Positions 56,347 to 56,859 of a stretch of 64,000 bases of DNA are shown in pieces. The DNA is taken from the NCBI RefSeq assembly GCF_055900595.2, contig NZ_CM148325.1; one strand, written 5' to 3'. A model generated the notes under the pieces. The model did not search any database, had not been told where the DNA came from, and worked only from the letters and a program-made list of their open reading frames with translations. How positions within the stretch are numbered: position 1 is the stretch's first letter; the number at the start of each line of letters is the position of its first letter. The position numbers were made by a program, and so were the translations under genes.

Positions 56347-56859
56347 TTAGCTGAGGCGTTGAGGGCCAGCACGGATACCTTGCGCCTGGCTTATCCAGAC
56401 GGGCGTGCTGAATTTTGCTTGCGGGGTAAAATGCGCATAATCAATGCGATAACCCTTTTCAGACGGCGTGCCTTCCTGGGTCAACAGCGCGCTGAGCGTA
56501 TCCAGTAATGCAAGATGTTGCGCCTGAAGAGGCAAAGATTCTTCAGCAACGGGCAGCGTTTGCGGTGCCATTGCGAAGGAAAGATGACGGATTACCGTGC
56601 GAATGGCATGTTGATGCCAGTAATCAACGGAATAGTTCGAATTCGGGCGGCGCGTGTTCGCTTCCAGCAAGGCCAATTGACCAAAGTTAACTTTGGCTGA
56701 AGGCTCGTGGTTGCGGGTTGTCGCTTTTGCGGGCGCGTTTGGTTCGGCTGCGTTGCTGAGCGCAGGCAAACCTAAACTCGCCGCGACCATCCCTAATAAG
56801 AGATGCGGCCAGAAGTAGCGTTTACCAAACTGTCGCCAGCGCGTCAGTATTCCACTCAC
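56347..56859 (-). CDS. secM: Secretion monitor (translation-arrest leader peptide regulating secA)
   Basis: GTG start ([31 protein letters not shown]...); C-terminal arrest motif [17 protein letters not shown]. The track ORF extends 51 codons upstream. Confidence 0.9.

Follow-up and report, generated by a model that had tools for sequence, protein, structure and literature searches.

A secM–secA locus of the canonical Escherichia coli type, with one arm of the predicted SD-occluding helix inside secM

Results

Organization of the secM–secA locus

The window, the whole 64,000-nucleotide stretch of DNA analysed here, carries secM and secA within the gene order lpxC-secM-secA-mutT, as in E. coli K-12 (Table 1). 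The secM gene lies directly upstream of secA on the same strand and across a short spacer, the arrangement by which a SecM system is recognized. Since secM ends at 56347 and the secA ATG lies at 56285, this spacer measures exactly 61 nt, and every coordinate given in a prior sequence-only reading of this DNA, including the spacer at 56286–56346, agrees with the ORF ends.

From the secM start to secA +60, over 634 nt, the alignment to K-12 MG1655 (secM b0097, secA b0098) is gap-free and shows differences at 15 positions, comprising eight silent changes and one non-synonymous change in secM, five changes in the spacer and one at secA nucleotide 15. T170S, located four codons past the arrest point, is the sole amino-acid difference between the two SecM proteins, whose residues 1–169 are identical. 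The window protein scores 195.9 bits against PF06558 (Pfam SecM; cut-off 25, E 4e-58) and 231.2 bits against NF002799 (NCBIfam SecM equivalog; cut-off 100, E 7e-69); given these family scores and the near-identity to K-12, chance is not a credible origin of the match. Residues 1–165 are those of PDB chain 9vvi_6 and residues 132–165 those of 8qoa_6, both entered as "Secretion monitor", and the 34-residue 8qoa chain represents the Pro132–Gly165 nascent chain modelled in the 2.0 Å stalled-ribosome structure (PMC10951299).

A 901-nt segment around secM occurs as a single copy in 5424 of 5426 complete E. coli genomes, where it is annotated lpxC-secM-secA. It matches several E. coli chromosomes at 100% and most genomes at 95–99%, which identifies the window as E. 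coli and sets its lineage somewhat apart from the majority. The secM open frame itself runs further upstream to a TTG at 57012 (56859–57012, minus strand; 221 aa in the mechanical ORF list), and an automatic gene caller could over-extend the gene to that codon. The real start is the GTG at 56859, which is annotated in K-12 and experimentally used and from which the ungapped K-12 alignment begins. Through its identity to the K-12 protein, the window SecM is predicted to carry an N-terminal Sec signal sequence about 130 residues ahead of the arrest site, with cleavage presumably after Ala37, the cleavage position of K-12 SecM.

Table 1. Features of the secM–secA junction in window coordinates
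Feature	Position	Strand	Basis
secA, 901 aa, regulated gene, ATG at 56285	53580..56285	-	ORF; all SecA Pfam domains matched
secM–secA spacer, 61 nt (helix loop and 3' arm)	56286..56346	-	ORF ends
Predicted helix 3' arm, GGGGCG-U-UUGAG (GGGGCGUUUGAG), including secA SD core GAG 56294..56296	56294..56305	-	MFE and centroid folds
Small alternative hairpin, CUCCG-CAACA-CGGGG	56302..56316	-	Fold with stalled-ribosome footprint blocked; also spacer alone
secM CDS, GTG start, 170 codons and TAA	56347..56859	-	ORF; length and frame as K-12 b0097; PF06558 and NF002799
Second CCUCA box, codons 168.3–170.1, weaker partner for UGAG (register b)	56352..56356	-	RNAalifold
Predicted helix 5' arm, CUCAACGCCUC, secM codons 166.2–169.3	56353..56363	-	MFE and centroid folds
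Stall site, Gly165 GGC 56365..56367 (P site) and Pro166 CCU 56362..56364 (A site)	56362..56367	-	Codon map; occupancy from literature
Arrest motif F150..P166, identical to K-12 and to stalled-ribosome SecM chains	56362..56412	-	Translation, alignment
Sec signal peptide of SecM, long/atypical, codons 1–37	56749..56859	-	Identity to K-12 and 9vvi_6

Arrest motif and stall site

The published arrest motif FxxxxWIxxxxGIRAGP (PMC10987492, PMC10951299) covers residues 150–166, and every residue that it specifies, Arg163 and Pro166 included, is present in the window SecM. The sequence-only reading is thus right in placing an intact motif at the SecM C-terminus upstream of secA, the stretch from F150 to P166 (56412..56362) being identical to K-12, and in finding no substitution at the W, I or terminal P positions, represented by W155, I156 and P166. 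Its choice of these three as the critical residues holds for Pro166, but alanine scanning, as cited in PMC10951299, identifies Arg163 and Pro166 as critical for stalling, with the other motif residues contributing; all of them are intact here. For the identical K-12 sequence, Gly165 occupies the P site and Pro166 the A site of the stalled ribosome (PMC10951299).

Motif variation was followed by a protein search, because a DNA-pattern scan for sequence encoding exact WIxxxxGIRAGP (one genome per species, 120 loci) demands the motif and its loci cannot show such variation. The protein search yielded 762 homologues, and the best 120 cluster representatives of the 762 were examined. A recognisable motif is found in 110 of these 120, the remaining 10 being frameshifted or truncated calls. 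In this cross-species comparison, which the earlier reading had suggested, F150, W155 and the run G161-I162-R163-A164-G165-P166 are invariant in all 110 motif-bearing clusters, residue 156 is Ile in 104 and Val or Leu in six, and the "x" positions are free to vary. The strict invariance of the arrest residues across the 110 clusters indicates that the stall itself is under selection. The tail that follows Pro166 reads QRLS in 97 of the 110 clusters and QRLT, the K-12 form, in four; QRLS being the majority tail in Enterobacteriaceae, Ser170 of the window (56347–56352) represents the common form and K-12 the minority.

Clusters P0005–P0007, P0034, P0035 and P0037 are 97–99% identical to E. coli SecM and are frameshifted after about residue 130–150, with loss of the motif; one frameshifted cluster comprises 47 member sequences, a 5.39-Mb contig among them. 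These clusters could stem from errors in sequencing or assembly, or they could be natural frameshift alleles of secM, the latter being unexpected because the arrest residues are strictly conserved among homologues.

Predicted SD-occluding helix

Both the MFE and the centroid folds place the secA SD core in an 11-bp helix with one bulged U and a free energy of −13.4 kcal/mol for the helix alone, and the same helix appears across three contexts of 161, 141 and 85 nt. The GAG core precedes the secA AUG by 8 nt. In the 141-nt context (56280–56420, minus strand), the fold by which the sequence-only reading had proposed to look for an occluding helix, the helix pairing the SD core is found, with an MFE of −40.1 kcal/mol and z = −2.59 (2 of 200 shuffles as good); the minimal 85-nt fold gives z = −1.97 (9 of 200 shuffles as good). 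Folded by itself, the spacer is without significant structure (z = −1.41) and leaves UUUGAG unpaired in the centroid. The placement of the occluding stem within the spacer, as that reading had it, therefore applies to the loop and the 3' arm (56305..56294), but secM codons 166–169 provide the 5' arm (56363..56353). All six junction differences from K-12 (56351, 56342, 56335, 56330, 56318 and 56307) fall outside both arms.

With the first P-site nucleotide (56367) numbered +1, the 5' arm extends from +5 to +15. For the GAG bases of the SD, the probability of being unpaired is below 0.01 in the free mRNA and 0.06–0.38 once the footprint of a ribosome with Gly165 in its P site is blocked; the predicted unmasking remains partial, since weak pairing of UUUGAG with early secA codons is still available. 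The predicted helix thereby combines two properties characteristic of SecM systems, sequestering the secA SD while overlapping the footprint of the stalled ribosome.

An Rfam scan of 55900–57300 at E ≤ 1 returned no family, so that this leader has no curated RNA model. A weak sigma-70-like match at 9 of 12 positions (TTGAGA-17 nt-AATTAT, 56270–56298, minus strand) overlaps the start codon and SD of secA and is probably a chance occurrence, its count being no higher than in shuffled sequence.

Alternative pairings at the junction

The post-arrest codons contain two tandem CCUCA boxes, at 56364..56360 and 56356..56352. Apart from the MFE helix (register a), a second arrangement (register b) pairs CUCAGCU (56355..56349) with GGC...UGAG. 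A small alternative hairpin, which appears when the stalled-ribosome footprint is blocked and also in the spacer alone, vies with the occluding helix for the G run; 75.7% of its cells are paired across species. We infer only that this hairpin may capture the G run during the stall. Position 56307, an A in the window and a G in K-12, leaves the window hairpin with one base pair fewer.

The arrest-motif codons themselves (150–165) fold as a strong hairpin at 56366–56411 on the minus strand (−22 kcal/mol, z about −2.9). High stability of this hairpin is seen in Escherichia and a few further genera, with a family-wide median z of −0.97 over 100 junctions, and no function is proposed for it because it is not kept across the family.

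Conservation of the helix across species

Of the 120 loci recovered by the DNA-pattern scan, 101 are real secM–secA junctions (102 with the window; 100 distinct), and the rest are chance matches in unrelated phyla. The alignment used for comparison contains 79 distinct Enterobacteriaceae-type junctions, in which 91.8% of register a cells are paired as against 30–53% in shifted controls, and 98.6% of register b cells as against 16.5–57.5%. Neither register, nor the small hairpin, shows covariation above shuffles in these 79 junctions: two register a pairs are changed on both sides, a number reached by 122 of 500 shuffles, and register b has none. The arms are nearly invariant, the 3' arm segment among them, which accounts for the lack of significant covariation, so that the alignment demonstrates conserved pairing without giving compensatory proof.

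Silent sites were compared in the 63 junctions with a QRLS tail. Pro166 is encoded by CCU in 51, Gln167 by CAA in 60 and Leu169 by CUC in 52 of the 63, and CCU, CAA and CUC are non-preferred synonyms in E. coli. The neighbouring Gly165 codon in the same junctions is distributed over GGG (21), GGU (14), GGC (14) and GGA (14). Of the bases held constant, the U in codon 166 and the A in codon 167 have partners in register a only. Judged from codon choice, the fixation at codons 166, 167 and 169 is consistent with an RNA-level constraint on the 5' arm. Codon use at R168 was rejected as a sign of such constraint: only CGC and CGU occur there, yet the control R163 behaves likewise (one CGA in 79), which points to codon bias.

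Salmonella and Klebsiella junctions fold into the same helix as the window. Cedecea, Morganella, Photorhabdus and Providencia form lineage-specific helices that start just past the Pro codon or at the stop codon, mostly with insignificant z-scores, and the SD is not in every case covered by the helices predicted for Cedecea, Morganella and some Photorhabdus. A per-species partner analysis that included 30 nt of secA is noisy, with the SD paired to early secA codons in many genera, and was set aside.

In two species (L077:685-890 and L117:1399-1621), the spacer loop carries an insertion of about 120–130 nt, giving spacers of 182 and 199 nt, with both arms intact. Over 92 nt, the inserted L077 sequence shares about 78% identity with intergenic DNA that carries no annotation in 234 E. 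coli genomes, suggesting a small repeat element of intergenic regions, possibly ERIC-like; L077 bears the label Citrobacter freundii, but has the SecM tail of the Atlantibacter loci. Photorhabdus junctions (L003, L009, L013, L016, L024 and others) have 80–85-nt spacers and an xAYL tail, and contain an in-frame AUG-UAA start-stop that directly follows the GAG(A) purine run and precedes the secA AUG by 12 nt; some of these junctions also pair the post-arrest codons AUCUC with GAGAU. In Morganella (L040, L095, L096, L116), the post-arrest codons GGCACAA or GUACAAUC pair with spacer UUGUGCC or GAUUGUGC, 9–10 nt upstream of the GAGA run, and a second CACAA/AACAA copy within the spacer is a potential competitor for this partner. 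These pairings, whose z-scores are insignificant, hint at a differently wired switch in Morganella.

Discussion

The locus is almost certainly a canonical E. coli secM–secA translational feedback unit, an assignment that rests on its near-identity to the characterised K-12 locus together with the literature. No evidence contradicting the feedback-unit model emerged from this analysis. Stalling and Sec-dependent release have been established for the identical K-12 sequence (PMC10951299, PMC4737659), in which the SecM chain is anchored by Arg163 in a pocket of the 23S rRNA, the Ala164 carbonyl holds the only hydrogen of the Pro166 nitrogen so that the peptide bond fails to form, and the stalled ribosome disrupts the stem-loop hiding the secA RBS (PMC4737659, PMC10987492, PMC10951299). 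In that sequence the stall is released by the working Sec machinery, which pulls on the N-terminal signal peptide. The statement of the sequence-only reading that SecM couples secA translation to secretion status is accordingly supported for the window, through its near-identity to K-12 and the same three studies (PMC4737659, PMC10987492, PMC10951299).

In the window, secM encodes a 170-aa exported protein with the arrest motif at residues 150–166, at which the ribosome would stall with Gly165 in the P site. From geometry, such a ribosome would cover roughly +1 to +15 from the first P-site nucleotide and hence the whole 5' arm, freeing the 3' arm and the secA RBS for as long as the stall lasts. 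Slow export would prolong the stall and raise SecA, and efficient export would keep the stall brief, allowing the helix to re-form and secA translation to return to its basal level. It is the location of the 5' arm inside secM, just past the stall site, that allows a ribosome stalled at Pro166 to open the helix, and the modelled footprint of the Gly165-in-P-site ribosome over this arm fits the published unmasking model.

Pairing within the junction leaves some room for a different partner of the SD. RNAalifold applied to the 79 junctions selects register b (consensus −1.66 kcal/mol, no covariation), whose 98.6% pairing has been noted, and this register is retained in Cedecea-like sequences in which register a is degraded. 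If the second CCUCA box rather than codons 166–169 occluded the SD, unmasking would occur through the leading edge of the ribosome or through termination and not through the stall position. This is unlikely, as the register b helix in the window reaches −2.4 kcal/mol against −13.4 kcal/mol for register a, the constrained ensembles stand at −9.0 against −17.0 kcal/mol, and the fixed silent U of Pro166 and A of Gln167 find partners in register a and not in register b. Because the second box occupies +12 to +16 relative to the first P-site nucleotide, a stalled ribosome would probably disrupt it too, which makes the two registers hard to separate. An arrangement in which the helix is secondary, with secA set mainly by termination coupling at the secM stop, by SecA binding its own mRNA or by stall-mediated delivery of the mRNA to the membrane, is very unlikely, even though blocking the footprint of a terminating ribosome likewise raises SD accessibility in silico. 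Autogenous repression by SecA and a role of SecM in localising SecA synthesis, both described in older literature, also speak for such an arrangement. However, all three sources (PMC4737659, PMC10987492, PMC10951299) name stall-dependent unmasking of the secA RBS as the mechanism, the invariance of the arrest residues in the 110 homologue clusters reveals selection on the stall, and termination coupling, SecA autoregulation and mRNA localisation complement stall-dependent unmasking without excluding it.

It is scarcely conceivable that the helix arises artefactually in folding, from a GC-rich motif beside an AU-rich spacer, leaving the secA RBS constitutively open. A paired fraction of 91.8%, compared with no more than 53% in shifted controls, the recurrence of the helix as MFE and centroid in all contexts tried, a silent-site fixation that coincides exactly with the 5' arm and published genetic work on the identical K-12 sequence (cited in PMC10987492) outweigh the points that would favour an artefact, namely an 85-nt z of only −1.97 (9 of 200 shuffles), the lack of covariation and the lack of an Rfam family. 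Stall-dependent opening of the register a helix is accordingly the preferred reading.

Among known systems, K-12 SecM (b0097, NP_414639.2) shares with the window its locus, length, GTG start, 61-nt spacer, signal peptide, motif and helix arms, and is distinguished from it by the QRLT in place of the QRLS tail, the eight silent secM changes and the five substitutions, all in the spacer loop. Short-type SecM (PF10818/NF038363, e.g. Mannheimia succiniciproducens) is likewise a monitor upstream of secA that combines a signal peptide with a Pro-terminated arrest sequence at its C-terminus (PMC10987492), but its signal-to-arrest distance is about 71 residues, compared with about 131 for the long type, and its arrest sequence is of the RGSP type. 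The window protein is not a short-type SecM, since it falls under both cut-offs (PF10818 20.9 versus 26.1 bits; NF038363 25.9 versus 45 bits). VemP of Vibrio, upstream of secD2F2, and MifM of Bacillus subtilis, upstream of yidC2, follow the same logic, in which an exported or inserted nascent chain stalls its ribosome, thereby opening a stem-loop that masks the SD of the downstream gene, and the localisation machinery relieves the stall by pulling (PMC10987492), but they are unrelated peptides with other target genes and another arrest chemistry and are not homologues. RAPP-type peptides (ApdA, ApdP, ApcA and the RQH family) carry a C-terminal R-A-P-P/R-A-P-G that resembles the R-A-G-P of SecM and are also found upstream of sec or yidC genes, whereas their motif order and upstream sequence differ and overall homology is lacking.

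A further, rather doubtful proposal is that secM codons 166–170 are conserved chiefly as RNA and not as peptide. The two CCUCA boxes resemble an anti-SD and would offer the secA SD two registers, of which the weaker second may keep the RBS masked while ribosomes pass through normally and terminate, with opening reserved for a ribosome held exactly at Pro166. If true, this idea would refine the known model and would not define a new system.

The SecM–secA system at this locus is already known and well studied, the window containing a near-identical copy of the reference allele. Its discovery value is small, as SecM ranks among the most thoroughly studied arrest peptides and the sole protein difference, T170S, lies past the arrest point. 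The analysis confirms the gene calling at this locus, with the GTG at 56859 and not the TTG ORF as the start, and provides exact coordinates for the stall site and the helix arms. It also corrects a common simplification, in that half of the predicted occluding stem lies inside the secM coding sequence, an arrangement that would make the stall effective.
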